Under the pieces are notes generated by a model. It was given only the letters and a program-made list of their open reading frames with translations, was not told where the DNA came from and ran no database searches. A DNA stretch of 63,865 nucleotides, counting the filler, from Hausera hauseri (Eukaryota), in the NCBI GenBank assembly GCA_046269625.1. It is 11 parts of 11 records of this genome, joined end to end, with 100 filler letters (N's around TTAATTAATTAA, not from the genome) between each part and the next. Parts side by side here need not be neighbours in the genome. Positions count along the whole stretch, not along the records: positions 22,753 to 28,228 come from JBJURY010246182.1; 10 more parts are not named here. One strand, written 5' to 3'. Of this stretch, positions 4,291-55,559 are shown piece after piece. The position numbers and the translations under genes are program-made. Each line of letters opens with the position of its first letter. The first letter of the stretch is position 1.

Positions 4291-4406
4291 GGGGGAGGGG
4301 TGATATGGTGCCCATAGAGGCCGGTGCCCTTTGGCCCATTTGGTCGGGCACAGCCGGGCGTCCGCTACCGCCACGTCGGGCCCATAAACGGACCTCGATC
4401 TTCCGC
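4291..4406 (+). mobile_element. Polypurine tract plus start of the 3' LTR
   Basis: GGGGGAGGGGTGA (4291-4303) is followed by TATGGTGCCC...; the next ~100 bp closely match 53472-53561, which starts with TG. Confidence 0.8.
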
Positions 4407-6443
4407 TTGTTTCACTTCACTCACTCGTCATTGTTTCCTCTACCTCCGAATGCAATATGCAGAAGTCTAGACAAGTATGAAGAGATTTTCAATGAAAGTT
4501 ATTTTAGTGCATTAAATATTAGTACGGAATTCAAAACAAGTGCTAGCTGGAATCTATCCGAATTCGATGTCCAATCAATTTCCAAGACTTCATGTCCAAT
4601 TCCTGTGAACTCAGTTGACGTTAATAGAAACAATTCATTAGATAAATCATTAATTAAAGGACCTTTATCTGTTGAATCTTTTGAGTCTAATAATGATGCA
4701 TCTAGCAAATAGCCAAAAATACGGAATGAACGTGTTACTGCCACTGATTCCTTATTAATTAAAACTCTTTCACATGAAGACCACCTTGTTGAAGTTTTTG
4801 TAAACAAATCAGCTTGAATCTAATAGTGTACTAATTTATCTGGATCTGAGTGTTTAAAGCTCGTCCATGAATGAGCCGTTTGCGAAATCAGTTAAATCAA
4901 AAATAAATTGATTATATCGAAACAGCAATTCTACAAAAGAACTAATTGAACCTTCAACGAGTGAAACTTCGGAAAATCGAGTAAATCCATCTAATGTAAA
5001 ACGGTTTCGGATGAAGCTCAAATAAAGCATAATTCATTAACAAGAAAGTTGAACAGGTTAGCATCATTAAACGAAAAGAATATTCTGTCTGATATTAAAC
5101 CTCAATTTAATCTTTATCTCCGATTTATGCAGATATTTTTTGAATATTCGGTAAACACTCAACAATTCAAATAGTGTCTCATTCACATCTGATGGCCATT
5201 CGATAAATACTCCTTTGGCACAAAGCAGGTGTTTAAATAACACTTTAGCACCCACCAAAACTTCCAAATGCAATCCAAAGAAGTATACAAATTCAAATAT
5301 GTCGGTACAAAGTATGGAGATTTCTAATACTTCATCACCACAAGTCTGTCCAATAAATAAATCGTCTGATAATCATTCTCATGGACTGACGTCAAGTAAC
5401 GCCTGCAAAACCTGTAAATTGTCAATGGAGAATTGTGCCTGTACCATACGGATTTGTTATTTTCATTTAGCTGTAAAAACAATGAAAGTTTCCAGGAATG
5501 AAATCTATTCTACCCAATAACCGGATTCGCCGACCTTATATATATATAGATATTTTTTGCGATGTTTTTATTTAAAAAAAATAAAAATAATTTCTTTTGT
5601 TGACAATTGACTTTAAAAAATTGAATTTCTCAGCCATATTACGTTTTGCCAAAAATCTTACTATTCAGTTACAATCGAAAGTTTCTAGCTTCAATTTCGA
5701 TTTTATTTGTCAAGTACAACGATTTGTTCTATTCTAACGGTTTGAATTTGGAATTATCATTAGCCAAAACACGTCGTTATTTTTGCGAGGATCTTACAAC
5801 TGTAATCAGCGGTCAGGAATGAATGAGAGAAAATGCGGTGAATGAGAGCTGTGATTAAGCAACAGCTAACCTACACCTGTTACATATCAGTTAACAAATC
5901 ACCAGCGGTAAAGGATGAATCTGTAGTTATTGAATTGCCTTTTTTGATCAAATTAGCAAGACATAATGTGAAAAATATGGTTGCTAGCATTAGTTGGTAG
6001 AAACTATTAGTTGACAGATCCGAGAATTTATAGAAATTTTGATGAGATTTGAGAACTAAACAATTGATGCGAATTAATAGTTAATTCTTCCAACACAAAA
6101 TTAAGAGCATTTATAACAAGTTTCACAGCGTCATCCAATTTTAATTCAGTTGAATCAAAAACGCCTAGTGGTAAAATAAACGTTAAAAGTTTAAACAATT
6201 GTGGTATATGAATTTGTTTCACACCGACAATATTACATACTAAATGTTATTGACGGATGTCAAAGCAGTAAAAAAGAAACTCTAACGTCTGTAATCGGTA
6301 ACATTACCTGATATTATCTGACATATTTTGTATACTTGATATTATAGGCCATGGTTCGAAATTAATTCTTATCACGATTTACTCAAAAATTCGTACTTAT
6401 GATAAATTGACTTAGTGAACTTCAATAAAATGCAAAACAAATA

Positions 6444-8545: not shown

Positions 8546-8882
8546 ATATTTCGAATTAAGCAAAATGTGCATTTAAAGCCTAATAAAGCGGAAATCGATA
8601 AATCCATAAGCGGGACGGGATAGGAAGTCATGTATGTTGAACTGGAATATAATGTTAGATATTCGAATTCGAGTGTACAAGTCGAATAATTAGCTATTTG
8701 AACTCGATTATTCGGTCAAACATGCATTATTCGAAGAATCTAATGACGTCATTCGATTCTCCATGGTCGAAGACCTTAAATTTGGCACCGCCGTGTATTT
8801 AATTCAATTGATGCATTAAAACAAAAGTGCATTAAAACCATAACGACTTTCGTGCCAAAGGAAAATCAAAGTTGCAGTTCAA

Positions 8883-17900: not shown

Positions 17901-20340
17901 ATTCTTTTAATCAGGACTTTTTGACTTCTAATTTTATCTGTGATTTTTATCTGACTCGTTGAATGTATTTATTTGTCAGTGAAGCAAATTGGTGTCAGAA
18001 GAAACAAAAACATCTACCATTAGAAAACGATACCGATTTATGGAATTGCAAATTAAAGAAAAAGTTTTTGATTCAATTGTTACTTGGACTAAGTACATTT
18101 TATCAGTTAGATAATCGTTTGTTTCGGATTTATTGTTCTGCATACGACCTAATGTATTAACCGAAAAGGATATTGACAGTTCTGGAAATAAAAAGAATTC
18201 TAAATCTATTGAAGAAAATGAAATTATAAAATATTCTTTCAACGTATACAAAAATCCAAAACATCAAGACGATCTAGACCAAATACTTGAACGATTGAAT
18301 CAAGTTAATATGGATACGTCCATTCCTCATGCAACGTCTGTAAAAAATCTTATCTCGATCGGGTTTTGAATTTTAAGAAAGATGCAATAAATGTTACTCC
18401 CGACATAATAAATTTACACGACGAATCCAATTCCTCTACATCCGGACGAATGTCCGCTGTCGATCCAGTTATAAACATTGAGGTGGCTTCAACCTATTCT
18501 AAAATTAATCAGAAATCAAAAGCAATAGGTGTGCAATATAAAAACAGCAATGACGTTCTTCGTGAATCATCGACGATTTACATGTCTCGTTGTAAGAAAA
18601 GTAAAATGCCTACATTTGAAAAATCGTTACAGACTGGTAGCAGTCAGACTGATTCTCCAGGAAATGACAATTTCAATTAGTATCAACAATCGAAACAACC
18701 GGATATTACACTGAATGAACTCTTACTATCAAAGTCCGAGCATGCGATTGGTGATAAGGAAGTCGAAAACCAAAATCCTGGAAAAATTATAATTAATACA
18801 AATTTCCCGCGTGTTACAGTAGAGCGAAATACAATCCATATATCTAATTACATCAAGTTAGTATCATCCAAAAATCCTACCCCAAGCATTGCGGTTACTC
18901 AATTATGGACATCTAATCCTCCAACTTTAAAGGAAAAGCAGGTACTAAATCCATTCTTAACACTAATTGATGGTGAAATTATAATAAAAGGAAATTCAAA
19001 ATTAACATATATGTTAAACACCTTCATTCAGGGTACATGGTCATCAATGTATTACATTAATTTTATATTTGCATAAATCATACCCTAAAAAATGATAAGC
19101 ACAAAATTTAATGTCCACGGTACTACCTTCAATCTAACAATTTATAAATTTTATACTGAAGGTACTTTGATCATCCATATATTTAAAAACAATGATGTCT
19201 ATCTAAAGTTCATTAGACAACCTTGCATGAAATATCCATCGTTTTTACAAAAAAATACAACTCATTTAATCAAATATCCACATACAAATTCATTTCTCTC
19301 TACCATTTATAAATTATTTACTGGAAATTGCCGCAAATCATATATCGAAATAAATTTTGTATGTTCATTGGAGTTACATTATGGTTATTTTATTAAAGCC
19401 CAAAAATTTATTATCGTAACTGAAAAGAGAGTGTATTTACGTGGATATTACACTTTTCTATATTGTTAATTGCAACACCCTAATAGTTCGATTCCAACAA
19501 CACTGTACACTTGGACTGTAATTTCACCTAATTACATTTAAACGAATGGCTCAATTCTTCATATTGACAAATCAACTAAGGGTGCCGCTTATCCGTTTGT
19601 CTGCAGAGTACATATACAGGGTGTTACATTCGATCATAATTACAACTTTACAGTATTGGATAAAAATAGCATATTCATCGAACCTCACATAACATTGAAT
19701 AGAACTGTGTTTGTGACAAATGATGATGTGGATGTTTTCTGCCGTTTATATCCTGTTGCAATTAAATTATTTATTACCGATGCAATTCCGGATATATTTA
19801 TTAGAAACCCACCTAATTTCCGAACTCGATATACACAAATATTGATCCACCTAACATCTTATACACCATCATGTGACATTCAGTTTTACTGCACGAAAAT
19901 AATCACCAACGAGAACATAATAAAGTACTTCAATATATCCATAATAGATGTAAAAATCTGACGATTTCTTTTATACCTCACATTTATATATTTTATTTAT
20001 ATGATCCGCACATCTATCTGTCAAAAACATTACAAAAACATTTTGATAAATGTCCAGCAATATACGTCAGAAAACATGTTCAGGACATTAATGAATTATT
20101 CTCTGTTGCTTTTATTCAACTGACTGACGTCTATTTAGAATTCAGACAAAAATTTCTATATAATACTCATCTACAAAAGTAACATTTCTCCAGGCAGAAC
20201 TACCAACTCGTATGAAAATATCAATTAATCAGTTCCTCGCTTCTTTAATTGATTTAAATTATAATTCAAAAAATTTGGCAGTAAATAAAGCTACAATCGT
20301 TTCCGATATGGTAAAGAGTATCGTGCATGACAATTCATAA

Positions 20341-21696
20341 AATATTATCTTTTCATCATTTATAAATGATTTTGTTGAGGGACCGAGCGTGCTCGCCCCC
20401 GTTGCGCCGCGTCCCCTTTCTTTTTTCATTTTTTCTAATCATAAACATATACACACATTAATAGTTACACACAAACAAACATCTCATATTCTTTATACTG
20501 AATTGTACTCTTATTTCGGTTTTACTGATTTTTACCTTATGCACAACGGTCTTATTCTGCAACCTTACGATTCTCTTCCATCCTTTGAACACGAGAAATA
20601 TTCCATCACTCTCACTGTCCATTTTCGCATCCGTGGTGGATCAGACCTTGATCCTTCTACCGAACACTTAAAAAAAACTAGATCAGGCCGTCGTCCTGTC
20701 GATCCTACATCAAACGTATGTCCCAATCTCCCATGCACGGATTTCTTTTTAGACCAGACGAATTCTAGTCATACCTGGCTGCAGTTACACTTGCAATGAC
20801 TAAAAGCCAATCACATTACAGATCCCTTTCTGCGGGCTAACAGTTTACTGGTTTTACTCCCAGACAACATCAAACAGCAGATAAGTAACTTGGCTGACAT
20901 ACTCTCCTCTTCAAGCCCGTATGATATGCTGTACGAATCGGTTCTACATATCACCGATCCTTCAATCGACAGCATAATCCAGAAGTACTTTAACGAATAC
21001 GCCATTGGAAATCAAAAACCGTCAGATTTCCTTAAAACGGCCATCTCACAACTGAGCTCTTTAGGCGTGACTCTGACGAACAATGCTGATCTTCTTCGTC
21101 GGTACTTTCTCTCATCTCTGCCAACCTCCATCCGAGCGTTGCTTACTGTAGTAGATGACTCTACTGCCATCGAAAAGCTCGTTTTATTGTCAGACAAAAG
21201 CTTCGATATTCTGCAGTCTAATAACTCGCAGCCTGTAGCCGCAGCAACTGCTCACATACTGCTAGACAACACGTTATTTGCACAACAACTAAACATGATG
21301 CAGAAACAATTCGATACCCTACAACAAGCAATTTCTGCAATCACTGCCCAACTCAGCGACTTATCTGTGCCCCGAGGGAGCGAAAATCGCATTTCCTGCG
21401 ATCGCAGTTTGTCTAGGCACTCTTTTCGTTCTAAACCCAGAGAGGGTAAAATGGCATGTTTCTATCACAACAAATTCGACAGAGATGCACGAAAATGTGT
21501 TTTAGGTTGTCGATTCTACGATGCACGATATTCCGTAGACAATCCAACCTGCATCTATCACTCAAAGTACCAGTCCAAGGCTATGTCATGCGTGCCAGGA
21601 TGTAAATATTATAAAAGAAATTCTTCTCCATCTTCTTCGCCTCCGCGCACTCACCATTCCTCCTCTTTCTACCAACAAGTTTCAAAAAACCAATAA
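20341..21696 (+). CDS. Ty3/gypsy Gag with an N-terminal ubiquitin-like domain (20416-20640) and two C-terminal CxxH..C..C fingers; one premature TGA at 20797
   Basis: ORFs 20389-20799 and 20890-21696 share a frame. The Ubl ends FRIRGG. Gag motifs GNQKPSDFL and LLRRYFLSSLP; fingers CFYHNKF..C..GC and CIYHSKY..C..GC. Confidence 0.85.
21684..21690 (+). promoter_or_regulatory. Putative -1 ribosomal frameshift heptamer A_AAA_AAC at the gag/pol junction
   Basis: TCA AAA AAC CAA TAA ends gag and pol is in the -1 frame. The same heptamer (TCA AAA AAC TAA) occurs at 26245-26251 in the related element. Confidence 0.75.
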
Positions 21697-22752: not shown

Positions 22753-22990
22753 ATGGTAAAGAATTGGCAGTCCATATAAATAATGTGAAACCTGCTTTCT
22801 TTGTCGATGACACATCCCTTACCGACACTTCGGCAGATTTTCTTACTCCTACATTGCCTTCTGTTCCAGCGTCCGTCTCGACTCCTACACCACTTTCTCC
22901 CACCCCTGTTTCTGTTCCCACATCCATTTCATCTCCTATTCCTACATCTAATTTTACCACACTTTATAGTATCACACAAGAAAGAGTGAT
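22753..22990 (+). mobile_element. Integrase C-terminus and S/T/P-rich tail of a Ty3/gypsy element
   Basis: VHINNVKPAFFVDD followed by a PTP/SPT-rich tail, as at 3280 and 34270. Confidence 0.75.
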
Positions 22991-23889
22991 ACTATAAAAA
23001 ATGCAATCAACGCGAAACAACACCAAATCTGTGTCAAAAACATCGAAACCCGGTGAACCAACCTCTAGAAAAAATGCGAAGGCCATCCGAACCAACGTCA
23101 TAATCCATCACATCCAATTAATGCAACGGTCAATGAAAAAAGAATACAACATATTCTGGAGTAACGAATCCCCAAAGTACCCACGCTGGAGAAAACGTGC
23201 AAGCACCCCACGATAGGCCACACGATAAGCAAGTGGTAAGCAGCGAGCTACATCTCGCCGGTCGAAAACGGCCAAAATCAAGTAATAGAAATTCCGATGT
23301 CCACAGGAGACGACGCTACGTCCGTTGCTGCAGCGTAGCCGCTTCGTGCCGCACCTCAGCCGAATACCCAAATACGAGAAGTTTTCGCTACCGGTAAATC
23401 ATCTCGAAAGGTTCTATGCTGACGGAGAGAAAGAAAAGCTCTTCGATCCTTCAGCATACACCCCGATATTTATCCGGTTAATGGTTGCGGTCGATTGTTT
23501 GTTTGAGTCACTGGTTTCATCAGAGAGCCAGCTGATCCTCGCCATTAAAGCCGACGGAACACGATGATTAAGGGTGTTAAGTTCGATTTCAGACGACGTA
23601 CCATTCCCGGCCCGCCTACTCCGGTTCGAGTCAATACCACGGAAATCTGAACAGTCGAATTTCAGTTCGGATGACGCGCCGACTCGTCCACTCTTCAACT
23701 GAAGATTCATATGCCTCGGCGGTCAAATTAAGTGAATTAAATAAAAAATTATTCATGATATGTGCTTGTTTCCCTCACACTTTTTTTAGTCGTTTTATTC
23801 CAATGTTTTGAACCAAAGCTTAAATATCCAAGCAAGATTTCACGCGCCAACACAGTCAAATCGGCACACATTTCCGATAAAATAACAAT

Positions 23890-26800
23890 ACCTCAAGAAA
23901 TTCAATTTTTCATACACGGATTACGCTTCACAAATGCGTATCGTTTCTCGACACACAAAAACAAAGATGCGTTAAGGCAATGCTACAACAGCTCGCCACT
24001 TCATATCAGGACGACATTTTTTCATACAACGCAAACATTTTGTGTCCATGGAATAGTCCCATTTAGGATTATTTTCCTACAAACAATGCGAAACTACTAG
24101 CAATCCCCAAACTAAAAGGTGGCGCTGACGCTAATGCGTCCGACAAAATGCCGAAAGTGCTTTAGCGGCACCAGCCAAACCACCCAAATTAGCGTGCCCA
24201 ATCTTCTTCATAGGTTGTAGAGGAACGCCATTTAAGTAGTTCAATGTGTTTGAAACATGGGCTACTCAATGCAACATCACCGACCAACTAAACAAGGCTT
24301 TAACATTAATACAATACCTGCTGCCAACAATGCTCGCAGCAATAACGGATTTGGACACGTTACTGTCAGATGAGAAGCAGCTTGACAAAATCAAAGCAGC
24401 CATATCCAAAGCATATCTGCCATCCCAGCACGACAAATTCAACCTGGTCTTCACCAAGCGGCAGACAAGGAACATGAAACCCTCTGTGTTATTAATTGTA
24501 CGTGAGGAAATGAATATTTCTGTCTTTTATTGTCTATCCGACATACCAAAAAAGAAATACAAATTCCAAAAATGTAAATACAACAACGCTTTTATAAAAA
24601 ACTTATTTTAATTTCAAATTCTACAAAATTGATATTCTATAATTTTTTATTTTACAATTATTTTGTTGTCACACATTATACGTTGATAATTAAAGTTGCA
24701 TTTCAAACTATTAGCTAAACTACAAGATAGTGAATCCGTTTATGAGTCAATCGGTTGTCTTCATCTCGGTCTTTTCTCTTGTTGTGTTTCTTCTGTGACA
24801 TTTTAGTGAGATAAATATTTGATAATTCATATGAGTCATTGCATTCTGAAGGGTTAATTGCTTGAGACATTGATGAAGAAATATTATTTGAGGTATTATG
24901 GTGGGGATTCTGATAATGATCAAGTTCTCTGTTTTGCGATTTTGGAATTAATGATTGAAGTTCTGTGAGGTCGGCGTTTGAGGAATTATTTGAGCAACGC
25001 TCAACCAGATCAACGGACAAACAATTCTTATGATCAAACAAAAGAGACAGAATAGTTTGCAAACACAAATTTCACGAACACAATTTTCGTAAGATTGACT
25101 GTGAAACATTTGGAACCATGTTGCGAAATAGGCGTTTTATGCTTTTGAAATTAACCTGATTATAGCTGATGAGTTTATATTGGATCTGCCGGAAATATCC
25201 TAGAAGATGTTTCATAGAATTATGTGACATTAAGGTGGTTGTCGATTAGGTTAGAGAGAGACTATCACACCGTAATTGCCAATTTTCAAATGAGATCTTA
25301 TTCTTTTTGATTAACAATTTGAGGGACGTGCCGGATGTTTCGAGCATTTGATTTAGTTGGCTTGGTTCCGGTTTCCTTTAGATAAATTTAAGTGACGGCT
25401 AAGACTTATATGCTTAACGGATATTATGCCTATTGTTATTGTTTAATTGGCACATTTTCCTGGATCTTGTCAGCCAAATGTTCAAGGGAATGGAGTAGGT
25501 ATTGTACGGTGATCATTACCAAATACCGACGTTGATGACTAAAGGTCTCCAATTATTCTGAAAAACGTTGGCGAATCAGGAATCAACCATTCCGGAAGAT
25601 AATTCCACGTTTGTGTTAAAATGTGTAAAGTTCAAATCCGTAATGACTGCCGAATTTGGTACAGTTAAAATATGGTGGCGCCCAAGCCCGCGGCACCACA
25701 CTCTGCTCTGCTCCAAAAGTTACGCTCAGACTTTATCACTGTTGAGTTGGACCTTCAGAACAACTAGAAAATACTACGACGCTACTTTCTCAGTAGTTTG
25801 TCAAACGAAATATAAGCGGCACTTGTACTATTACCATCCGATACCACATTGAACGATATGGCACAAAAGCCGATAAAATATATGAGTGCACTAAAGGTAC
25901 CCTAGAATCCGCACTAACGGAAAATATCAACGCCGTCACCGCGGTCCAGCAAAATTAGCTGGACACAATTATCTCTGCCATGTAGGAACTTGTAACGCAC
26001 AAGAATCTGCCAGTTAGGGACAAACCGTCATCTCGGCACCAATCTCCCAAAAGAAAGAAAAGCAAATTTTCAAAAAGTTGCCATTTTCACACACGATTTA
26101 GTGAGTCCACCTATAAATGTTATCATGGTTTCCAATTCGACAAACCATCCGCAAATATAAAATGCAAGACAACTGCACTTATTACAATCACTTCGGTCCA
26201 GATGCAAACACCTGTCAACCAGGCTGCAAATTTTACAAACCGTCAAAAAACTAAATGGAACCAGACGACCAACGGAACGTCGACTGGAAACCCCATTATC
26301 ACAACTGTCGTATAAAAATAGAAAACGTATTGTCAACAGTATTTTCATTCTCAAGGCGGAGGTACTATTTTCTGACATGTCGAAACCACTAGATTTTCTA
26401 ACTGGCTCTGATACAGCTTTATATTTAATACCTAGCGCATACCCTAGACCTACGTTGGTCGCGCATGCATTGCTCAAAGGCTGCCAATGGCAGGCAAATA
26501 GCGACCACACGTACATTGTACTTACAATTTCATCTACAAGGCCGGCCATACTCTTGGTCATTCATATTGGCCGACATCATGCAAACAATCATTGGTTCTG
26601 ACTTTCTAGATCACTACGATCTCACAGTTGATTGCCAAAATTAACAACTCGCCAGCGGGAGCAATCCATTACCTCTATCCGCATTCACCCTAAACATAAA
26701 CGCGGTCACGGGCATAAAAATTGCAAATTCCGTTGACATCGCACCATTTCTCCAAGCGCAAGACCCTAAATTGTTGAAACGCTCAACACAGAAAGAGGTA

Positions 26801-27430
26801 AAAACATCACACTTTTATGTTACATCATGCTATCGTCCGATTCGACAATTCCAAAGGGAGCTTGACCCTGTTAAGGGAGCAGCCGCGGAAGCAGAATTCC
26901 GACACCTTGGAGAAGCAGGCATTATACGCCGCTCTACATCGCCATGGGCATCACCGTTGCACATGGTTCTCAAAAAAGACGGTCCATGCAGGCCTTTTGG
27001 TGACTACAAAATGCTAAATAACGTCGCTGTCCACGATTTTTACCAAACGCCGTTGTTAACCGACATATTGCATCGCCTACACGGTGCCACAATATTCAGC
27101 ACAATCGATCTGGAAAGGGAATACCACCAGATCCCAATCGTTACCAAAGACATTCCAAAACGGCCATAATAACGCCTTTTGCTTTGTTCGAGTATCTATG
27201 CATGCTATTCGGTTTACGGAATGCAAGTCAAACATTTCAACGCCACATCGACTAAGTCCTCATCGACATGCCTTATGCCATCCAATATATAGATGACATA
27301 TTGATTGCATCACCTGATGAAGCGACTCACAAAATAAACCTCGACTACGTTTTTGACCGATTGAATGAAAACAACCTACAAGTGAAAATAAACAAATATT
27401 CATCTTTCAAAACAGAAGCCGTACTTCACG
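23890..27430 (+). mobile_element. Second degenerate Ubl-Gag/pol Ty3/gypsy element, with gag interrupted by a 1214-bp insertion
   Basis: Ubl remnant ends IPKLKGG (24123). Gag WATQCNITD...MKPS|ALLQKL...LRRYFLSSL, two CxxH fingers, A_AAA_AAC, IIGSDFL, STSPWASPLHMV, YIDDILIAS. Confidence 0.88.
24487..25700 (-). mobile_element. Solo-LTR-like insertion (TG...CA) with a 5-bp TSD (CTCTG)
   Basis: CTCTG at 24482-24486 and 25701-25705; removing the insert restores the gag frame MKPSALLQKL. Its minus-strand start matches the post-PPT sequence at 34683 (23/30 nt). Confidence 0.82.
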
Positions 27431-27655
27431 GACTTCGGTTAACACCATATAATCACTGTGAGGAGGAATTGAAACATATATTAAGGCTTAAATTTAATTC
27501 AAAGGTAATACAGTAAACAGTCAACAGAAAGTCAGGAAATTCAGAAAAGAAGGAAAATAAGGCTCATTTCCCGAATGAAGGAGATAAATGTTACATAAAC
27601 TTTTGTAATAAATATCTTATGGATAAATCAATCACCCGGTGATGTTGACGTCGGA

Positions 27656-28228
27656 ATGGTAGAGACGCGATCTACTAACATGGCGATCAATGCTTCAAGA
27701 GACTTCTTCGAGAAGAAATTGATGCCCAAAGAATTCCAGAAAGGTGACAACGTGCAAACCTTTATTGGAAAATGCCAGAGATACTCTGACTTTATAAAGA
27801 TGTCGGAGTCGGATCGGGAAACGGCGGTCCTGTGCCTATTGGCGGACGAAGCATAGGAAAAATACCATCTGGTGAGCCAGAAGGTGAAAGGGTACCAAAA
27901 CCAGTAGAGAAGGGCCTTTGCAAAACCCACAACGCTGTGCCGAGATCTGCGGGACGCATTAGACTACAGAATGAATGGGGCAGAACCGGACGTTTACTTC
28001 AACAAAATCGAATAGCTGGTGAAGGGCATCCTTAGCCACAAAATAACAGCGAAAGCTCTAACAGAGGAATTGATGATCCACTGTTGCGATATTCCGGAAA
28101 TGAGAAAGGAAATCTACCACAGTGACGAAAAAACGTCAAACAAATCAAAGAGAAATACGGAAAGTCCACGAAGTGGCAACAAAGACGGAAGAAATAAACA
28201 CAGTCAGAGAATACACTAGAGAGGGTCG
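27656..28228 (+). mobile_element. Degenerate gag-like ORF of a different LTR element, nested after the truncated RT
   Basis: MVETRS...PKEFQKGDNVQTFIGKCQRY...; helical Gag-like sequence with in-frame stops, starting shortly after the preceding RT breaks off near 27430-27458. Confidence 0.55.
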
Positions 28229-29099
28229 NNNNNNNNNNNNNNNNNNNNNNNNNNNNNNNNNNNNNNNNNNNNTTAATTAATTAANNNNNNNNNNNNNNNN
28301 NNNNNNNNNNNNNNNNNNNNNNNNNNNNAAAGGGCTCCAGCACGCTGACAGACCTGTTCTCTTCCCACAACCCAGAAAGAAGAAATAAAAATGTGCATAA
28401 CTTATTATCAACTGACTACATGGAAACGAGTCGGGGCAGCTGACTGAACTTCTTAAACACCACGGCTCACTCGAAAGTTTAAACGGTCAGGTCCCGTCTC
28501 GGTGTTCCAGTCTTTACAGTACTTTCCGTGAAACGTCCGGGTAACTCCACCTCTGTTTTTACCGTCATCTCAGGGCCTCCAGCCAGCGGTCTGAGCCGGT
28601 GAGACCAGCTCCGTGTCGGACTTCTGCAGCGGAGGTCATGTTCTGCAACACACTCGCTTCTCTTTAGTTTTTTTTTGGTCTATTTCACCATTTCTATCCA
28701 TCGCCTTCATCCATCAAACTCATTAATGGGGATAGTTTTCTTAGTCTTAGAAGTTCATTTCAAATTTTACTTTTGGTCTTATGGGTCGTTGTTGTTCGTT
28801 TTTATCATCAGTTATGTACGTAGGTTTGTATTTATAGGGTGTCAAGTCAATATTTTGTTTCATCTGTTGTAATTGATGTATAGGGTAAAGTCCTGTATGT
28901 ACTACGTATCGGGAGGGCTGAGAGATTCACTAATGGTTGCTCGTTATATAATTGCCAATGATATTTATTCACAGGGTCTAGATGAGGTAAGTCTGTACTT
29001 TTGCTTTCGTGACTTCAATGCCAGTTGTTTAATACTAGTTATTCGATTATGCTTTGCCTTTACTTTTATTTGATCATATTCGATATTGTTATCATTAGG

Positions 29100-30958
29100 T
29101 ATACTATACGGGGAATCTTTTCCGTCTTTCCTTTGTAGAATCTTCCTTTTCCATCGTGCGTCCTGGTTTGCTAGAAAACAATTTGCTACTGCAGGTATGA
29201 CAGCTATTAGAATTTTTCATCAGCATCCTACTGCTGCATGTATTCCATAGGCCTTACTTAGTGCTGTAAATACTGTACGTATAGCACTAATGATAAAATA
29301 TATGGCTAGAAAACCGGACGCTGCTTGGCCAAAATATAAAAATTTTCTTTACATCTTTTCCATTAGGTTTTCCCATTGCGGTGATTCTTCACCATCCCAC
29401 ATTACTCTCCTGGTCAATTCTATTATAACTCTGTCTCTGTTGAGGAAACAACAGCATTAGTCGGTAATCTTCTACATTTTGTTGTGTGTAGATTCCTCCT
29501 TGTGATATTCCTGTTAACGGTTCGAACTTTTGATTCCTGTGCAAATTAATCAAACTTAGTGTCTCCTTATTGGACACGGGTTCTCTTTTTGGTATTCTAA
29601 TCCATTTTTCGTTGTCAATCTTAAACATTGGCGACGTATTGAAGGTACAATTGTATAGTGGAGTAGGCTTCCATTAATATCTAATAGTATTCTAATCACG
29701 GGCATACAATATCTTGCTTCTGCATGATAAATTACAGGCAACTCCATTGTACATTTGTCTACTGGCCTAATTGATACTTCTACCTTCTTACATTCTATTG
29801 TTATCAGTACTTCGCCCATCACTCTTCTGATAATCCCATCGTCAAAGGGCATTACTGGCGCTACCATGTCCAGATTCGTTATTACCAATGTTATTTTGTT
29901 ACGCATTATTTCGTAGTTCAGCTTGCATTCATTCATTATTATCTCTCGATATAAGCCTCTTATCTCTTTCCTTGCATAATTGGTTAGAAAATCAATCTTA
30001 TTATCAAAATATTGTGCTAACTTTATATATTTCTTATCCATTTTAGTTTTTGCTCCAGGTATTTCTTTTGACGATAAGAAAAAACCTTATAGTTGGTTCT
30101 CGATATTTCTTCACTGCATTTATTTACTACTCCAGTGATTTTGAATCGCATCATGTCTTCTGTATTTTCTGAATATACAATTGTAACCACTTCCGTCATC
30201 TTGACTTCCTTTGTTCTTTCTTTATATGTCGCTATCTCTTTATTCGCCGTTTTTTCCACTGTCTTGTTAAACTTTCCTTCTTTAATAACGTCAGTTGGCA
30301 TTTACTGGCAGAGGTTTCCCATGTCATCATCGGCTCTCCAGTATCGTATTCACCGTTATCATACTCACATTCACCCATAGTCGTCATCACTTTCGTTTGA
30401 GTCAAATAGTCCTTCATATACTTTCAACTGGATCTGATAATCTTCTATGGTTACCGTTTTAGGTGCGATGGTACCTCCAACGTCGTAATCCACTCCTTTA
30501 CAAGTGCCTTCCATCATTTTGTCTATCCTTCCTGCCCTAAAAATTCTGGTGTATTTTATTCTATTTCAAACTGCCGGTATATGCGCGTTTTGAATAGTTA
30601 TTATGCCAGTTTTAAAAGCATCCTGGCATTCTGCTCGTGATATTATTATCGGTACGAAAGGTGTTGTGGGCTTAATTATGGCCAAATTTCCAGAGTAAGA
30701 GGCACAATTAAAAAGGAAGAATGATTTCTTTACATAACATTCTCTAATTTTCGCTTTTATGAATTCCGATTCTTGATATACCCAGTAGGTAAGACCACTT
30801 GTCGTTGTTAGCTGTTCCGAGTCGGCTTCTGGACATTTTTCTAAATCAACTAGAGAATACTTTTGTCCTTCGCTAGGTTTAGAGCAATCATAAGCTACTA
30901 TACCCACAGCTTTTGGCATTAATAATGACGTTATTAGGAGAATCTGAAGAATCTCCAT
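29100..30958 (-). pseudogene. Chuvirus (Jingchuvirales)-like class III fusion glycoprotein in env position, degenerate
   Basis: Signal peptide MEILQILLITSLLMPKAVG then IVAYDC...YSLVDLEKC; GEVLITIECKKVEV...CTMELPV; GGIYTQQNVEDYRLMLLFP; TM region FLYFGQAASGFLAIYFII...AYGIHAAVG. Confidence 0.8.
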
Positions 30959-32122
30959 TATTGACATACATGTTATGCCTGGTCTACAGCTGTTTGGCTG
31001 CATCGCCGTTGGCGTATCTATTAATCTTCCTCGTTCCCCTGACCTCACTATATTTTTCATTAGGCTGGTCAGCCATGCTCCTCTACATTGAACTCAATTT
31101 CCTAACGTGTCTTTCAAAATCTTTACGGCTGTCTTTATATTTCGCTCAATTTCTTCTAGATTTTGAGTCTGGTGATTAATTACTATTATTTTGTAGAGGA
31201 GATAGGATATATCCGTTTGAGCTTTCTCTCGCGTGATTCCAGTTACAAACATTTTCTCTAAAATATTTAATTAATGCAATTCATTTATTCTTTCTTCATC
31301 TAGATTCTCATAAAACTGCCTACTTATTCGCAGCATACAATTACGTAATTTTGTGAATAATTCGTCTGGGATTATTACCTGCATATCAATTGAGGCAAAT
31401 GATGTATGTAACTTAGCCAGTAGAGTTCTTAGTAATGGGTCTATATTCCTCTATTCGGGAGTACCATTTGTTCCTACTAACAATAAGCGACATACCATTT
31501 CTTAGTTTATGTCTTTCTTATTACGAATGTCACTTATCTTCGTTCCTTTTGGCTTACCTCTTCTCTTAGCTTCTGTCTGGACTGTAATGTTTTGAGTATC
31601 GCCTGCGGAATTTTCTTCTGTTCCCTGTGGTTCTATTTCCCTTAAGATATTATCCACTTTTGCCTGTGCTCTCGCCTCTGGATATATTTCGGTTATAGCT
31701 ATCGGGTTGTAGTTCTCGTTTCTACATCCAATTGTCAATAATTTCTCATAGCTATGTAGTGCCCTTCCATAATAATCTAATCCCTAAGGACTTCCTTAAT
31801 AAAATGGTTCCAACTCCTCTATCTATTCTCGTAGAGTTTGTATGTCATATGTTTTGTTCATCCTGATGACCCTCATATCTTGGTTTCCTTCTCTTACCGT
31901 TATCCTGTTAGTTTCATTTCTTCCTTTCTCATCTTCGGCAGTTTTGGCTAAAACTGTCCTTGCTATTTCTTTTACAGGACTAGTATCTTGGGCTAGTAAG
32001 ACCAATTGTGGTAAAATTTCATTCATCCTTTCTGCTGTTACTTTGTTAGTAATTACTTTCAACATCGCATCAGTCATTTTATCTACATCGATTATACTAT
32101 TGGGATCGACAATCATTACTGC

Positions 32123-33291
32123 TTAAATAATACCGTCTTCTTCCCGATCTACACCTGGATTCTTTATTACTTGATCTAATATAGCTTCATCAAATATTGG
32201 TATAGCTTGAGCTTCGTCCTTGTCAAATGAGGGTGTACTGAGGTTACTCTTCTTTCTTCCTGTTTTCTTTTCCTTTCCTACCTCTTCCCTCTCTGTTGAT
32301 GTTTCTCTTGATTCAACATCTATGTCGATTATTTTATTATTACCTTTCTTTCTTTCTTTATAAGATACTTGTTTCTCCGGTTGATCTCCTATCATATAAA
32401 TATTATTTTCTTTCAGTCTGTGCTGATGTCTTCTATAATCTTTCAATTCTATTTCTAATTGCTTCTTCATGCGTTGGGATAGTGTATCATTTATATAATT
32501 AACACTTTCTTTCTTTTTATCCTTTTTCTTAACTTCGTGTTCACTAACACTATCGTCCATTTCGTATTCTTTATCGGATGATTTATTTGACGTGGCTGAT
32601 GTGTGATCTTTCTTATGTTGTTTATTTTTATTACTTGATTTCGAGGAGTCTCCTCTACGTTATCTGCATGATTTCGCTATATGTCCGTATTTATTACAAT
32701 TAAAATATTTCAGTCGTTCTTCGGAATCTATGTTCGGTAATGCCCTTCTATTTTTTTTTATTTCCTCTTATAACTTGTCTTTTCTCCATCGTTTCGTAAA
32801 TTAAATTTTACTTTCTTTTCTGCGTCTGACTCGGCTTCTGTGGCTGACGTTTGTAAATGGCTTCTATTTCTTTCATAACGTTTGGTACTTTTGAGTATTA
32901 TTGTTTCTTCTTTTATCATAACCATTATTGCTGCTTTTAGACTTATTCCACCTATATAATTCCTCATCTCGTTCGGCTTTTCGCGCCTTTCTTATTGCTT
33001 CTTGAAACGTAAGTGGATTTGCTTGTAAAATTATCGTCCTTAGCCTTTCTTCTAATCCATATTGGAATTGGGCTAACAATGCGTCAGGATATGCTCTCGC
33101 TGCAAGTTTTTCCAATGCACTGACAAAGTCCTGGACTGTTTCATCTTTACGTTGCTTTCTTATGAACTCCTCGATTCTCCCCTTTCCAGAGGGATCTATT
33201 AAAAACTTCTGAGACAGTCTTTCTTTAATTCCCTTCCTGTCCTTCTTGTCCTCATCTGACATTTGGAAATATATCACGAGAGCAGTCCCTT
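32123..33291 (-). mobile_element. Degenerate Ty3/gypsy-type gag upstream of the env-like gene
   Basis: RKQRKDETVQDFVSALEKLAARAYP...QFQYGL...PLTFQEAIRKA; degenerate CCHC knuckle YFNCNKYGHIAKSC at about 32665-32706. Confidence 0.8.
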
Positions 33292-33391
33292 NNNNNNNNN
33301 NNNNNNNNNNNNNNNNNNNNNNNNNNNNNNNNNNNTTAATTAATTAANNNNNNNNNNNNNNNNNNNNNNNNNNNNNNNNNNNNNNNNNNNN

Positions 33392-34682
33392 CATTCCGCC
33401 TTCTCAAACGTCACGTAACATGGCCATCAATGAGGTCTGATGTACAGAGTTGGGTTAGGCAATGCGTACCTTGCCAAAAATTCAAAGTTGCTAAATATCT
33501 TAAACCGCCATTATTCCATTTTCCATGTACATCCCGTTTTGAGTCAGTTCACATAGATATCGTCGGCCCATTACCTTCTGATAACGGCCACCAATTCATT
33601 TTAACAATGATGGACCGCGCGTCTCGTTGGCCTGAAGCCGTCCCTTTGCGCTCCATCAACACAGACTCGATTGCCGACGCATTCATAAGGATTTGGATTA
33701 GCCGTTTCGGTTCACCTCGCCATATAATTACAGACCAAGGTTCCCAATTTGAATCGAACCTATTCAAATCTCTAGTTAATCGACTGGGCATAAATCACAT
33801 ACACACAACTCCATATCATCCCCAGTCGAACGGCTTATTGGAACGCTTTCATCGCACTCTGAAGATCTCGTTAAAAATTCTCTCCGAAACTCATAAGAAT
33901 TGAACAACCATTTTCCCTTTTGTTTTACTCGGTTGGCGCAACACGCCGTCTACTACTACCGGTTGCGAACCCCCTGAAGCACTTTTCGGTACCACAATTC
34001 GCGCACTTTTTGAACTCACCGATTTGGGCAACACACCAACTGACGAAACAATTAAGTCTGAACAAAGTCACTTCGTTCAATTAAGCCAAGATTCTTTCTG
34101 CAAAATAGTACATGGTGACAAATCATACTTACTGACTCGCTATTTAATGCAAAGTTCGTGTGGATAAAAAATTCTTCACCTTTCGGATTTTTAGCACACT
34201 ATTTAAGAACATTGAAAGTTCTCAATATTCTCACATTTACAATACTCAAAAACGATAAAGAACAAAATGTGCACATATCTAACGTAAAACCTGCATTTTT
34301 CGTTAATGACACACCGGATCCAACAACTACCTCTACATATACCTTCATTGACTCCTTCAATCCTTCTTCTGTTCTACCTCCACGACAACCTGCTACTCCG
34401 GAACACGCATAAATACAAAAAACTACGTTAAACGACATACCGACTAGTTCTCAAGCTACTGACACGTCAAATCAAAATTTAAGTTCCTCCCAACCAACTC
34501 AGCAAACAATTGAACAACACGGTAAAAAACAACAGTCCCTTTCAGAAAATACAGCAGATAACAAAATATCGACAAAATTCAAAGTCTTGTCCATACAAAG
34601 ACTCTACAGTTCGCCTACACATCTCTGTTTTGTTTCCTTACATTTTTTACATTAACAGTGTCATTTTCGTAACGGGGAGTAG
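33392..34682 (+). mobile_element. Ty3/gypsy integrase remnant (same family as contig 1) ending in a PPT
   Basis: Close protein match to 2355-3300 (VHIDIVGPLP, ITDQGSQFES, PYHPQSNGLLERFHRT); GGGGAGTAG at 34674-34682. Confidence 0.93.
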
Positions 34683-34712
34683 TGTATTGTCGCGGACTCG
34701 GGCGTCACCACA
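34683..34712 (+). mobile_element. 5' terminus of the 3' LTR (30-nt hairpin-like unit)
   Basis: TGTATTGTCGCGGACTCGGGCGTCACCACA directly after the PPT; homologous to the end of the solo-LTR-like insertion. Confidence 0.7.
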
Positions 34713-34842
34713 ATCCACAATATTACGAAGTTATCAAAGAACCCATCGATTTACGGAAAATTGCTCGGCGAATAAAATTATCGGTATATTTGACGATTAA
34801 TGATGTTGAAAGGGATTTCCTACTCATGATAAAAAATGCCAC
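34710..34842 (+). pseudogene. Bromodomain fragment (polybromo-like)
   Basis: PQYYEVIKEPIDLRKIARRIKLSVYLTINDVERDFLLMIKNA fits the ZA loop/helix A/helix B consensus and stops right after KNA. Confidence 0.8.
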
Positions 34843-36189
34843 CGAAACCATTATGCAAACCCATGACCGAAAGTGCAACATAAACGTTTTTTCCAAGATG
34901 GCCGAAGAGAACATACTGATAAAATTGCTTTTACTCCATCACTTTCATATGCCGAAAAATTGCTTTTAAGGAAGCATCGTAACAATCAACTTGTAGCAGA
35001 AGATATGAAGTTTATTTTCAGCCGGCTTGCAAATAGTAATAGTAAAGCAATGGAAGACCAAAAATTGATGGACACATTTATTGATGCAGATAAGTCATTA
35101 CAGTACAATTCAACAGTGGCTGCTGTTGACATGTGCCACCTAAATATTTCAGCAATTTCAGATCTTTCGTTACAAATGTCTGATATGTCAAATTTATCTG
35201 AAAATAATAATAACTCAACTTCTGACTTTAACACTGAAGATATTACTGAGCCATTTGCGACACCAAATGGGCACCATCATATACAGGAGGATACGACAAA
35301 AGCCTCAGTAAAAGATGTTCAACAAACAAATGTGGATAAAGATAATATAGTCCGTAAATTAGAAATCCATGATGATATTCACACCAATGAAAGAAAGCAG
35401 CATAAGGAAGAAAACCGTATTAAGTCTCTAAACTCTGGACGAATGTTTAACGATCGTCCTCATTCTAGTCGTCGAATGTCTGCCAGAAGTAGTAGAGGCG
35501 GAAAAATAACTACACAACCTTCAACACTTCTGAATATTTTGGCAGATTTTAGCACATCTTCCATATTAATTTCAGTCAAAAAATTCATCCAATTTTATAT
35601 CTAATGAAAAGCCAAGATCAACAAGTACTAATTCGTCAATATCATAAAAATGAGGTATAATTTTTACAAATTACCTCCAAATTCATGGAAGCCTACTCAA
35701 GCATGGGCTGATAGTTCAATTTTGTCAAACGATGAAATGATCTCTGGAAATTATGATTTCAGAATGGAATATGTAAATAATTGATTGCTATTGAATGTAA
35801 AATTTGAATAAAGTTTCCCGTTTATTAAATCTGGTTATTTCTTCAATGGAATTTATTATATACAAATTTCTTGCTAATGTTAAGAATAAAGGAATGGTGT
35901 CAGAATATCAACTATCAAAAATGCAGACTGATCGGATTATATTTCATCAGTACGATAAAAGTGATAATTTGGAATATTTTATAAATTGGAAATCGGTGGA
36001 TTATCGATCTTTGATTCCGGAATCGGCAGAAAGTGCTTTTCAACCACTGTCCGAACGAGCTATAGCAACCTACAAGGACGGTCTTCGTTACCGAACGTTT
36101 CCTGATACAGAAAATCCATTTTTCGACAAAGTCCGATATTCGAACCGATCACGTTAGACTATTTATTTGGTTCTCCGGATTACAATTTA

Positions 36190-38016
36190 TTTTTACCCGA
36201 CATCATCGGATGTAGTGGATTTGTAAAATCAGACGTAAAAAATTTTTTATTCCAAAAATTATCAGCACAACTGACGTATTCCGATGGAACGTTAAATTAT
36301 GTTACCGACGTCTCAGCAAACGGTACACTTTCATTTCCAATGTACAACAACGGTAATTTTATTTTCGGCCATGTTTTTCCAAGTAATTATTCGGTTCATT
36401 TTAAATCGGAAACGCACGATGGAAAGGAAATTGAATTGCTTGATACTGTTTACGACTTGAGGGTGTTTAATGATAACATCATTATTAAGGATTCTTTTAT
36501 AATTCGAGGCTATCCGGTATTTGGTGACGTAAAATTTCAATCAGATCGCGTTCAAGATGTTTACACATATTTATTTGCCAGACATTAAAAGAAAGAAATT
36601 TGACTATGACAAATATCGATGTTTACAATCGGAAAGTGTCGACATTTCTGTTTATAGTTATGATTACATTTGTAAAACGGTAATAAATCTAAATGGCGAA
36701 TTCATGTTTCCACTGTTACCCGGTGAAAAATATTTCATTTTGTCTGTTTATTCAACAAATCTGTCATCATTCGACATTGAATCGACGAAACATGAATTCG
36801 AAATCACGAGCAATTCCACTGATCTCAGATCGGTATTTACCGTTACAGGATATTCCGTTTATGGAAAGCCAATTACAAACGAGTCAATTCCAATGCGGAA
36901 ATTTACATCAATGGAAATCTCGTGACGAAAACATCCAACCCTGGAATGTTTGACATTTGCGGTATGAAGAAAGGTAATCACGAATTTCTCGTTGTTGTTG
37001 ATCGGTACATTTTTAACACACTGACAATGTCTTTTGATCCGAGAGATCCAGATTTAGGATCATTCTATCCTGACAAAATTGCCATTTGTGAATCAGTCAT
37101 TATTCATTCTGCACAGTCCAACATAAAATTATTTGGTGATGAATTTAACGGACTAAAATTGTCCATTGCCATTGTCAACAGTAGCAAACCATTTAGTCTG
37201 ACAGCTTTAAAGTTAAAATCAAGTAAGAAAATAAAATTCGATAATAAAAATACCATTTTGGATCAATTCTGTTTCTATACAGAACAAGGCCATAGTTTAA
37301 TTCGATCATTGGCGGATTCGTCATTCGGCAATTTTAATTTGGCCCCAAGTAAAATGCCGATAAGTAAAAATGACGATAGCTCAAAAATGTTCATTGATTC
37401 ATTACAAATCCACAGAAGATTATCGAAAATCTGTTTACCGAATGTCGGTAAATATGAACTGAAAATCGAGACGTGTCAACTAGTTGATAATGATATTCAA
37501 TTTGTCGATACGATCGAATTGTGTCCGTATCAATTTGATTATAATAATGGCGAATGTCATTTGAAAATTAATAATAAACAATTTCATGTGCGAGTCGATT
37601 TGACATTCGTCGGTAATTCGTCAGTGAGTGATATGGAGAAATCGGATATCTGAGGATTGGTACGAATTGGTGAATTGGATCCTGTGGAAATTAATGTTGA
37701 ATGGATGACGAATTTGACAGGTCAATTCCAATTCTGGATATTTCCGAATATTCCGGCAGAAATTTCGTTGAAGTCGTCGATATTTTTATTTACACCAAAT
37801 AAATTACCATTTGATGTTGCTGTGGATACGATAAAATGTATATCGGTTGGTGGTAAATTTGTATTGGAGAAGGGGTCATTTATTGAAGGATATATTGAAC
37901 AACGTGTGGAAAATGTTACTATCGACGTTTGTAGGAAGTCTCATTTTAATGATTATATTTGTATCGTTATGAAATTGCACCAAGAACAATTGGAATACGT
38001 TCTTCAAGGCAAATAG
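36190..38016 (+). pseudogene. NOMO: Divergent Nodal modulator (NOMO)-like copy, frameshifted and internally deleted
   Basis: DIIGCSGFVKSDV...GTLNYVTD...FPMYNNGNF resembles NOMO1 VVGCGGFVKSDV...GTLKYQTD...IPLYDKGDF; NGEFMFPLLPG...VFTVTGYSVYGK resembles DGSFSFYSLPSG...VFHVMGFSVTGR (recalled sequence). Confidence 0.8.
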
Positions 38017-38039
38017 TCTATTAATACTCTTTCCAGCCA

Positions 38040-38345
38040 CTATTAAATCACTGCTCCCAAATCTTTACGAAATCTTCCAAATCGCAGATCCATACGAAAC
38101 ACTATTTAACGCCGTTCTTAAACTCACTGAGCCTTCTCTGAATAACATTATCCAAAAATATTTCAATGATAATTTGACAGGAAACCAGAAACCCTCAGAA
38201 ATTTTACAAACATCTTTAACCCAATTAAACAAGTTAGGGGTAAACCAGACAAACAATACCGACTTATTGCGTATATATTTCCTTCAATAATTACCGAAAG
38301 AAATACGCGCTTTACTAACCGTAGTCGAAGATACCGCTGTTAGAA
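38040..38345 (+). mobile_element. Gag fragment of the Ubl-Gag family
   Basis: DPYETLFNAVLKLTEPSLNNIIQKYFND...GNQKPSE...NNTDLLRIYFL aligns with 20890-21160. Confidence 0.85.
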
Positions 38346-38714
38346 AAGACCATAAAAATTTCAAATTTTTTCGAGGAAATACATTTTTGGTAAGTTGAGC
38401 TAGCCAAAAAANNNNNNNNNNNNNNNNNNNNNNNNNNNNNNNNNNNNNNNNNNNNTTAATTAATTAANNNNNNNNNNNNNNNNNNNNNNNNNNNNNNNNN
38501 NNNNNNNNNNNCCTATGTGTTTTCCTGTTTCCCCAAGGCCGTATCCGAAGTCAGTTCTGTTATCCGAAATGATCACTTCTGTGGCAGATTATTATTATTA
38601 TTATTTTTTTTTTGCCAACTCAAGTTTAATCTTCCGCGGCTTGAAACCGGCAAAAGTGTCTAGTGGTGATCCTAGCGGTGTTATATTTATAACCCACACA
38701 CTAATATATGAAAA

Positions 38715-42395: not shown

Positions 42396-42619
42396 GAATT
42401 ATGGTAGGCTTAACTTTTTGAAGCTTCACGGTAGCATGCGTCATAAGTTAGTGTGGGACACGGTAACTGGCATGGTAAGATAGTGTGGGACACCGTAGCA
42501 TGCGTGTCTTGTCTTGTGATAAAACCCAGAAGAATTGAAAATGTTCGAACCGTTTACCACATAGGCTGTTCCTAAGATGTGACAAGAAAAAAATTTCGGA
42601 AACTTATTTCTGAATATAA

Positions 42620-44040: not shown

Positions 44041-44049
44041 AAAATAATG

Positions 44050-48541: not shown

Positions 48542-48578
48542 TTGTTTTGTTTGTTATATACAAAAATTATGTTAAGTA

Positions 48579-49070: not shown

Positions 49071-49396
49071 ATGTGTTCCTGTTTCCTTTTTTTCTTTCCG
49101 TAAATAAGGTACGTCGTATTGGTCAGTTGAATAATTCAAAAACTATAAATGCGGGTAAGTTATAGTAATAATAATAATCATCATGGAAATAGTTAATTAA
49201 TTGAAACAATTGCAAAATTTTGATGGATTATCAATTTCGGACTTGATACGATGGTGGCAAGTACTTTATAGTAATCTGGTTGCGAGAGCAGCGGGTGATT
49301 TTGGATTTAAAGAAGATTTAGCGTCAATAGCATTGATGACAGCAAAGCATTGTAGCTCCATAGAAAATCTAATCATTGTGTTAAATTAAATGTACA

Positions 49397-53471: not shown

Positions 53472-53561
53472 TGTGGTGCCCACAGCGGCCGGTGCCATTT
53501 GGTCCATTTGGTCGGGCACGGCCGGGTGTCCGCTGCCGCAGCGTCGGGCCCGATCTTCCGC
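53472..53561 (+). mobile_element. LTR 5' terminus of the contig-1 gypsy family
   Basis: TGTGGTGCCCACAGCGGCCGGTGCC... aligns with 4304-4406. Confidence 0.8.
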
Positions 53562-55559
53562 CTCGAAATTTCACGGTTCCTATCCTACTCAAAACAATTC
53601 CTTATACCAAAACAAAGAATCCAAATCACCCAATTCAGATCTTTTATAATGTGAAACAATCATCAAGAATAACTAAAACAGAGAACAACTCATGCTTCAG
53701 ACAGTCGCTATTTGTTTCAGATTTCCAGCAAAACATTCGACGCAATCATAAACATCTTCACACTAAAGGGAAACCTTCAACTATTTTGAATCCATCTATT
53801 GATCAGACTCAAAACAATTCCTTCTACAGCACCCTCCAAATGTGAAAAACGAATCTGTCAGCATTACTGAATAAGATAAAGACAAATCTCAAAATCGAGA
53901 AGATAAAACTCTTTCGAATACAAAGGATTCCACGGTAGATTTCGTCGATCAACTCACAATTGATTCACCAACTATAAAAACCGGAACATCCAAGTCTCAG
54001 CAAAAGATCGAAGAAAATTCCGATCCCGTGATTGCACCTTTTTCCAGGCAGTAATGTTTGGAATCGTGCTTTCATGCGAATGAAGAATTTAGCAAAACAT
54101 GTTAAAGTTAATGTTTCCATCAATATGAAGTACTTAAGAGATCCGAGTCAGAATTATAAGCTGCAAACAAAAAATTACGGAAATCTCAGATTCAAGCAGG
54201 ACAAAATGTGACGGCTTTTGAGAACATGCTTTATATGTATCAAGAGGAAACTGAAAGGTAAATTAAAGAATTGCGAATGCAGTGGTATGATATCGGAATG
54301 CGTTTGAAGTATGGTGTGAATCTTTTTATTGTTTCGAGTAGAAGTCCGTCTAAGTCTCTTGCCAATGGAACTAATCCGAAACCAAACGAAGAACCTTGTG
54401 AGGATTTCATATCAACCAATTTAAAATGGTCGTGGTTCGAATCAACATTTTCTTGATGGGTATCAATCTCTTTTTGTCAGTTTTCTTAACTTTTCTAATG
54501 ATTATGGTGTTTTTATCGTAAAATGAAGAAAAATATCACTGATGAAATTGAAAAGACAAATCTCATACAACGTTAAAACCATCCATTTACAAGAACTTCA
54601 CACCGCAGCGTTCATCAACAAAAAAATTAACAATCGTGACTTCGGCCGATATATTTAGTCTACAAAACCACCACGCGGTGTGCACATTCCAACATTAGAA
54701 TCAGATTATTTTTCAGACGATAACCGCCGATCATGCCAGTATGAAATTTGCTGAGGCAATTAACATACAATAACGACACACATACACACTAAATGCTTCA
54801 TTTGATCTTTGTAGTTCACCGTGTAAGATTTTGTTTAAATTTTGTAGTGTAAAGAAAAAAAAAATTAAAAAAATACGTTTGAAATTTGAATATTTTCATA
54901 GTTGGCCATTGTGAAATTTGTTTTCATCATTTTAAAAAATTTTGTTCCGAATTTTCGATTTGAATGTAGTTTCGCAATCTCAAAGGATTTGTGGTTTCTT
55001 ACTTTCAATTAAATCAAGAGAATTTGTTGTACTATAAGCATACTGTTGCTGTATTTCGGATATTAAGATAGTAACATGGTTTCGTCTATCGGGGTCCAAA
55101 AGTCATCATTGCAGAACTGTTGCCTTTTATACGAGATGCCTGATGATATTCTACACTATGTACTACCCATGTTTCTGGATTTGCTCAATGAATGTTGTCT
55201 AGAAACCTCATCCTCACATCTGATAATCCGGATCAGTTATCAAGTTACGACTGTTGCACCGGTAACTTTGGAATCCGAGTCAGAACTAGAAGAGATTAAT
55301 GAGGGTAATCCGAATTGGGAGATAATAGTTGAGGAGAAATTGAACGATCAATTATCTAATAATAAGGACCAGCACCGGCACATGATATTGATGCCCATAT
55401 CCTTATTGATGGCGAGTTTTTCACCCCGCCAACTGTGTATCGTGGATTGAAACGCTTTCCAACAGGACGGCGAACAAATGTGAAGAAGCTGTAGGACTGT
55501 TTAATGAAGCATCATCACTAAACAGACTGGTAGACAAATCTGCTACACTCCAGGTTTTA

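Follow-up and report, generated by a model that had tools for sequence, protein, structure and literature searches.

A solo-LTR-like insertion in a decayed gag of Hausera hauseri: a short tip shared with a retrotransposon end and a possibly mRNA-derived interior

We analyzed a window of 63,865 nucleotides, made of 11 contigs joined artificially with N44-TTAATTAATTAA-N44 spacers, from Hausera hauseri, a eukaryote rich in decayed Ty3/Gypsy copies. An element with both LTRs was absent from all 11 contigs. The contig at 22753-28228 contains a Ty3/Gypsy gag gene interrupted by a solo-LTR-like unit (Table 1). Homology to Gag breaks off at the left end of the unit and resumes at its right end: by tblastn, residues 211-310 of the relative P0124 align to 24195-24494, and residues 180-229 of the relative P0123 to 25699-25863. 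A site sharing the tip of the unit, at 34683, is found on a different contig (33392-38411), so that the two are not physically linked.

Table 1. Features of the insertion, of its sister copy at 34683 and of a second pair of tips.
Feature	Position	Strand	Remark
Solo-LTR-like insertion, TG...CA, antisense to the interrupted gag	24487..25700	-	1214 bp
Left 5-bp target-site duplication (TSD), CTCTG	24482..24486	+	empty sites skip 1214+5 bp
Right 5-bp TSD, CTCTG	25701..25705	+	empty sites skip 1214+5 bp
Decayed gag, 5' part, interrupted	24195..24486	+	tblastn with P0124
Interrupted gag, continuation	25706..25863	+	tblastn with P0123
GC-rich (70%) 5' tip; putative U3 end and integrase site	25671..25700	-	23/30 with 34683
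Degenerate tRNA-3'-end-like motif at inner end of tip, PBS-like on + strand	25673..25686	-	
Decayed coding-like interior, about 955 bp, 36% GC; putative host-mRNA fragment	24716..25670	-	
Longest open stretch of the interior, stop to stop	24715..25071	-	118 aa, no Pfam match
AT-rich (22% GC) 3'-UTR-like tail, last 229 bp, ending ...AATAACA	24487..24715	-	AATAAA at 24531-24526
Polypurine tract (PPT) downstream of integrase gene (33394-33900), another contig	34674..34682	+	
Sister 30-bp tip	34683..34712	+	23/30 with tip of the unit
Reverse complement of CsRn1-clade PBS, one extra base	34698-34710	+	tip bases 16-28
5'-truncated bromodomain, starting at the end of the tip	34709..34846	+	Pfam 5e-12
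Same-strand chain after the bromodomain, to mid-gag fragment	34867..38338	+	
GC-rich tip of second subfamily, directly after a PPT; then unrelated sequence	4304..4410	+	
Partner tip without PPT; then coding-like sequence and AT-rich tail	53472..53575	+	

Read evidence came from Logan contigs of X1, the only run listed as a match (47% of words), aligned over 22753-28228 only; no RNA run was listed. X1 may be the window's own sample. The alignment comprised 15 listed joints with 47 further ones, 40 listed difference rows with 816 further ones, and 663 loose ends outside the listing. Among the joints listed, five X1 contigs (four, depth 275; one, depth 16) skipped 1219 bp, i.e. 1214+5, and one further X1 row skipped 1221 bp with 2 letters between. 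The exact 1219-bp skip indicates related gag copies devoid of the unit and of one CTCTG. The left junction was spanned by one X1 contig (510 nt, no difference). We conclude that the insertion and its target-site duplication are real. The original prediction of a 1214-bp TG...CA insertion with a perfect CTCTG duplication was thus confirmed in its coordinates, and its statement that the insertion splits gag agrees with the placement of gag on both sides. The unit contains neither internal element sequence nor a terminal direct repeat, and no terminal inverted repeats (TIRs) were found at its ends (4/7 and 12/30 terminal matches).

The first 30 bases of the unit on the minus strand match 34683-34712 at 23 of 30 positions; the runner-up site in the window reached 19/30, and none of 500 shuffled 30-mers attained the score of 23. 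Because position 34683 directly follows a PPT behind an integrase gene, we take the tip to be the start of an LTR. Past base 30, the unit showed no similarity to four other regions or to sequence elsewhere in the window. Neither gag is preceded by a copy of the tip, and the 3' end of the unit has no counterpart in the window. Of the two fixed ends initially proposed, the 5' end is therefore the only one shown to be fixed. The tip had also been described as a 30-nt hairpin common to both sites: the sequence match holds, whereas the hairpin of the unit is within chance (z -1.23, 21/200 shuffles), that at 34683 does not form (z 0.01), and none of the four tips in the window folds beyond shuffles. 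Scanning metagenome contigs for the tip pattern gave no match, and locus searches with integrase and gag queries confirmed 0/10, 0/7 and 0/302 stretches. Elsewhere in the window, a PPT-like tract at 66-90 (+) is followed by a 9-base tip-like motif, then by AT-rich sequence.

The inner end of the tip resembles the 3' end of a tRNA. In the 34683 copy, the CCA of this motif lies 2 bases short of the end of the shared block, and the unit's copy carries two more changes than that at 34683. At the same stringency, PBS-like motifs occurred 0.3 times per 64 kb in Markov-simulated windows and 3 times in the real window. This possible tRNA likeness was spotted post hoc in the sequence and is treated as a lead. 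No tRNA was found by ARAGORN, and Rfam over 22753-38411 returned one match only, a chance one.

Immediately after the tip, at base 30, the GC content of the unit drops from 70% to 36%; all later 30-nt windows stay at or below 57%. The original prediction described about 1 kb of degenerate coding-like sequence here; the ORF is present, and the coding signal is modest. Stops number 16, 30 and 8 in the three sense frames (P 0.043), the any-frame stop test gives P 0.07, and the codon score is non-significant (P 0.19). In the stop-poor frame, 2 of the 8 stops are missing in the other X1 contigs that cover these positions (2 of the 6 differences listed, P 0.02). The same six listed differences suit another frame about equally, with 4/6 at third positions and 3 silent, so that the stop-loss evidence for the coding frame is weak. 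Comparison of the interior (X at stops) with proteins gave no match: there was no homologue among 1.84 billion representatives, none among 1948 candidates, and none of the unit's 7 open stretches matched Pfam. The AT-rich end block with AATAAA that had been announced is also present, and does not exceed chance: AATAAA sits 45 nt from the 3' end, and occurs in 57% of shuffles of the tail and within the last 60 nt in 18%.

Compared with the very abundant body of the family, the interior is clearly scarce, bar one spike. Summed X1 depth, which is not a copy number, was 12, 1791, 58, 31, 22 and 154 across six interior bins; the adjacent gag bins reached 55,897 and 17,982, and contigs identical to the window had a depth of 6-9. 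The spike of 1791, at 24766-24948, presumably reflects a short repeat; within it, at 24853, one X1 contig terminates. At 25379-25563, between 2 and 7 other X1 contigs have sequence similar to the interior.

The firmest evidence comes from the sister copy. Its bromodomain covers Pfam positions 25-70 of 84, the first 24 profile positions being missing; its closest solved structures are PBRM1 and BRG1. The chain that follows consists, in order, of a 245-aa ORF (Atlas was uninformative, best 0.76), a weak chromo-shadow-like piece, NOMO pieces interrupted by a stop and frameshifts, and, from 37994 on, a fragment of mid-gag; the gag piece beside this copy is 61% identical to P0124. Codon scores for 34713-38000 were set aside as circular, those ORFs being in the training set. 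A recognised host gene is tied to one junction only (34712), and a single truncation or template switch there would alone account for the way the first pair diverges. The proposal that captured transcript pieces fill these LTRs is supported by the interior starting at 34713, a truncated host gene, and not by the unit's own interior.

A second pair of tips behaves likewise. The sequence at 53472 is 88% identical to that at 4303 over 81 bp; about 105 bp are common to both, followed by an abrupt divergence. No convincing right end and TSD were found for 53472, five candidates being judged chance-level by rough estimate. Both related pairs in the window (2/2) therefore share only a GC-rich tip followed by unrelated interiors, as expected of the exchangeable U3 that had been proposed; one event per pair would suffice for the divergence observed. 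Downstream of the 53472 tip, the same contig carries an uninterrupted PP1-type phosphatase ORF of 392 aa (56614-57792, +). Its two best single-domain matches are 61-64% identical, followed by many flatworm paralogues at 50-54%, which hints weakly at a flatworm host.

As for the family, the motif CX2HX9CX3C occurs twice in tandem, at 21457 and 21550, in a related gag of another contig; these two tandem CHCC knuckles (21457-21610, +) are likewise found in P0122-P0124. CsRn1-like elements are reported to have a 4-bp TSD, LTR ends TGT...ATA, and a published PBS motif for tRNA-Trp (PMC2582038). Here the TSD is 5 bp with TG/CA ends, and no tRNA-Trp PBS was found upstream of either gag, both copies decayed, at up to 2 edits. 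We therefore call the family CsRn1-like rather than a member of that group, and the unit likely derives from such a CHCC-Gag (CsRn1-like) Ty3/Gypsy element. What the family has in common with the CsRn1/PwRn1/AgCR clade is the Gag motif (PMC2582038), here as a tandem pair, and, as a weak point, a host that is likely a flatworm. It differs by the 5-bp TSD, the 1214-bp unit, a ubiquitin-like segment before Gag, and the PBS, which is not before gag and whose reverse complement is in the LTR tip.

This ubiquitin-like (Ubl) segment, with a di-glycine end, precedes Gag at 20341-20796 (+) and 24103-24125 (+), and is in frame in P0124. Its sole PDB match is the ubiquitin-like region of SDE2 (E 0.34), and it has none in Pfam. 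Ubl-Gag may possibly be a cleavable fusion; a literature search found no paper on such a fusion. In P0123, mid-Gag is joined in frame to a DUF5777 barrel of bacterial type (residues 47-170, E 2e-30), a joint most probably due to chimeric assembly. At 18300-20290 (+), a long coding region, decayed and confined to one frame (9 stops versus 46 and 48), ends near an AATAAA just upstream of Ubl-gag; it gave a weak Ig-like Atlas lead (0.92, low recognition) and is either host flank or another cargo. At 22997-23850 (+), an integrase tail runs, with no PPT between, into a low-depth coding-like stretch that contains AATAAA and a T-rich tract ending in AG; Ubl-gag follows.

Taken together, the chances appear about even that the unit is a solo LTR in which sequence from the 3' part of a host mRNA took the place of U3 past its first 30 bases. 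This reading draws on the empty sites, the post-PPT match of the tip and the GC drop at base 30. It also draws on the truncated bromodomain at the end of the sister tip, with more broken gene pieces on the same strand and a join to mid-gag behind it, on the divergence of the second pair after about 105 bp, on the scarce interior and its one stop-poor frame, and on an order that fits: coding-like sequence in sense orientation, stop, AT-rich tail, AATAAA and a short end. Retrocopies provide a precedent, being partial and multi-gene, with a fixed switch site in BLASTOPIA (PMC5131818). U3 replacement is weakened by the interior, for which neither homologue nor parent was found, by its codon score, by the any-frame stop test, by X1 differences that suit another frame about as well, by the predicted shared R/U5, which no comparison of the unit with other regions revealed, by the single host-gene junction, by the spike at 24766-24948, and by a TSD of 5 rather than 4 bp.

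Replacement could have occurred by template switching, a plausible variant of known LTR-mediated retroposition. Starting from what is observed, i.e. boundaries, TSD, tip behind a PPT, scarce interior and host-gene start at the end of the sister tip, the steps that we infer would be as follows. Reverse transcriptase would shift the first cDNA onto a co-packaged host mRNA, copy 3' UTR and coding sequence over about 1 kb, and return to the element RNA near base 30 of U3, so that PPT and integrase site are retained. Both of these switches would fall within minus-strand synthesis. The resulting new LTR would integrate, and recombination between LTRs, or integration of a short LTR-only cDNA, would yield the solo unit, which would then decay.

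Other origins have to be weighed against U3 replacement. The unit might be a solo LTR that is merely long and belongs to a small subfamily, with a native U3 and a decayed ORF of the element as interior; the 34683 copy would have lost what follows base 30 to a deletion or to one template switch of the internal type. We hold this to be unlikely: for related clades, 251-521 bp, 381 bp and a training length of 330 bp are reported, against 1214 bp here, the GC drop at base 30 is abrupt in the unit itself, and the pattern is repeated in the second pair. It would nevertheless accommodate an interior with no host-gene match and the similar sequence at 25379-25563 in other X1 contigs; LTRs of related tapeworm families are reported to be only 15-40% similar (PMC12471100), and U3 is described as variable in general (PMC3601003). 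Somewhat less probable still is that the 30-bp tip, TGT...ATA/ACA, is the entire LTR. The 34683 element, lying inside host DNA, would then end at 34712; the unit would be this mini-LTR plus 1.2 kb of 3' flank gained through a read-through transcript, integrated with a CA end by chance. The tip does have LTR-like termini, TGT...ATA being reported for CsRn1-like LTRs (PMC2582038). The lack of a shared 3' end in the window also suits it, as do two gag genes that have no recognisable LTR or PBS and are preceded by coding-like sequence with AATAAA at its end. However, tip copies are absent upstream of either gag, about 105 bp are common to the second pair, and the flank at 34713, a series of broken gene pieces that runs into gag, does not look like a normal locus. 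Moreover, a 30-bp LTR leaves no space for a promoter or a poly(A) signal; we know of no such case, and a literature search revealed none by title or abstract.

A functional role for the tRNA-like end of the tip is very improbable. The RNA would end, or be cut, after ...CACCA and self-prime or circularise on the PBS, and host cDNAs would be joined to the fixed end by template jumping. The near-exact clade PBS complement at 34698-34710 (one insertion; 0.3 expected per 64 kb) and the stop of the motif 2 bases before the end of the shared block speak for it; its post hoc finding, the 3 matches in the real window, the two further changes in the unit's copy and the lack of a matching PBS upstream of either gag speak against it. 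As to a non-autonomous DNA transposon (Ginger2/Tdd-like or Pack-TIR) with TG...CA ends, it is largely refuted and has hardly any chance of being correct. TDD-4 and TDD-5 are reported to make 5-bp TSDs, and Ginger ends to begin with TGT (PMC2836005), but TIRs, required at 40-270 bp, are absent, and the 5' end matches a post-PPT retrotransposon end. The original prediction had named an unrelated DNA transposon as the finding that would overturn it; the unit is instead an insertion of LTR type.

U3 replacement by host mRNA would extend processes already described. LTR-mediated retroposition is established in animals, with partial and multi-gene retrocopies (Tan et al. 2016, PMC5131818). It resembles the present case in joins of partial host mRNA with an LTR element, in multi-gene chimeras and in a recurrent Gypsy switch site; such a join of partial host coding sequence is seen here at 34713, the unit itself having no host match. 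In that study, the Drosophila retrocopies all lie between two intact LTRs, where they replaced internal ORFs in part, whereas here the cargo would lie between the U3 tip and the terminal CA, in a unit with no internal sequence. In the BARE-2 and Veju TRIM chimeras, foreign sequence is reported to have entered the LTR region by abnormal template switching; for BARE-2, the donor was the retrotransposon Wis-2, in a single founding event in plants, and not varied host genes (PMC13317346). Pack-MULE, Pack-CACTA and Pack-TIR elements also have short fixed termini around varied host-gene fragments (PMC13317346, PMC8277862), but those are DNA transposons with TIRs, which are absent here. By title or abstract, a search of mainly open-access literature found no report of host mRNA filling an LTR.

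Host-gene cargo inside an LTR would be an unusual location, as known LTR-driven capture places cargo between the LTRs. Solo-LTR formation normally erases internal cargo. Cargo within the LTR would be copied to both ends at each round and outlast solo-LTR formation. It would also defeat the uniform-LTR assumption of LTR-finding and family-consensus methods, and host genes could become sources or targets of small RNAs; a 30-base tip would test the minimum LTR that an element needs. A family-wide version (Pack-LTR), in which LTRs reduced to a short fixed tip with a tRNA-like CCA at its end would be refilled repeatedly with 3' pieces of host mRNAs and would borrow their poly(A) signals, is possible but rather unlikely. 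If it were true, cargo would be present twice per element and scattered as solo units, making this very abundant family a shuffler of gene fragments. If the unit is just a long native LTR, the locus is an ordinary nested insertion.

Other elements were noted in the window. One, at 28329-33291 (-), is Gypsy-like; it combines a piece resembling the Ty3 capsid with a fusion glycoprotein of Monjiviricetes type (E 7e-21, 2e-12) that has decayed. ORF pieces at 8780-11320 and 48576-52023, judged by eye, presumably resemble Polinton/Maverick-type DNA polymerase B and endonuclease VII. Finally, a diverged satellite array with a 16-bp period lies at 42589-44050.
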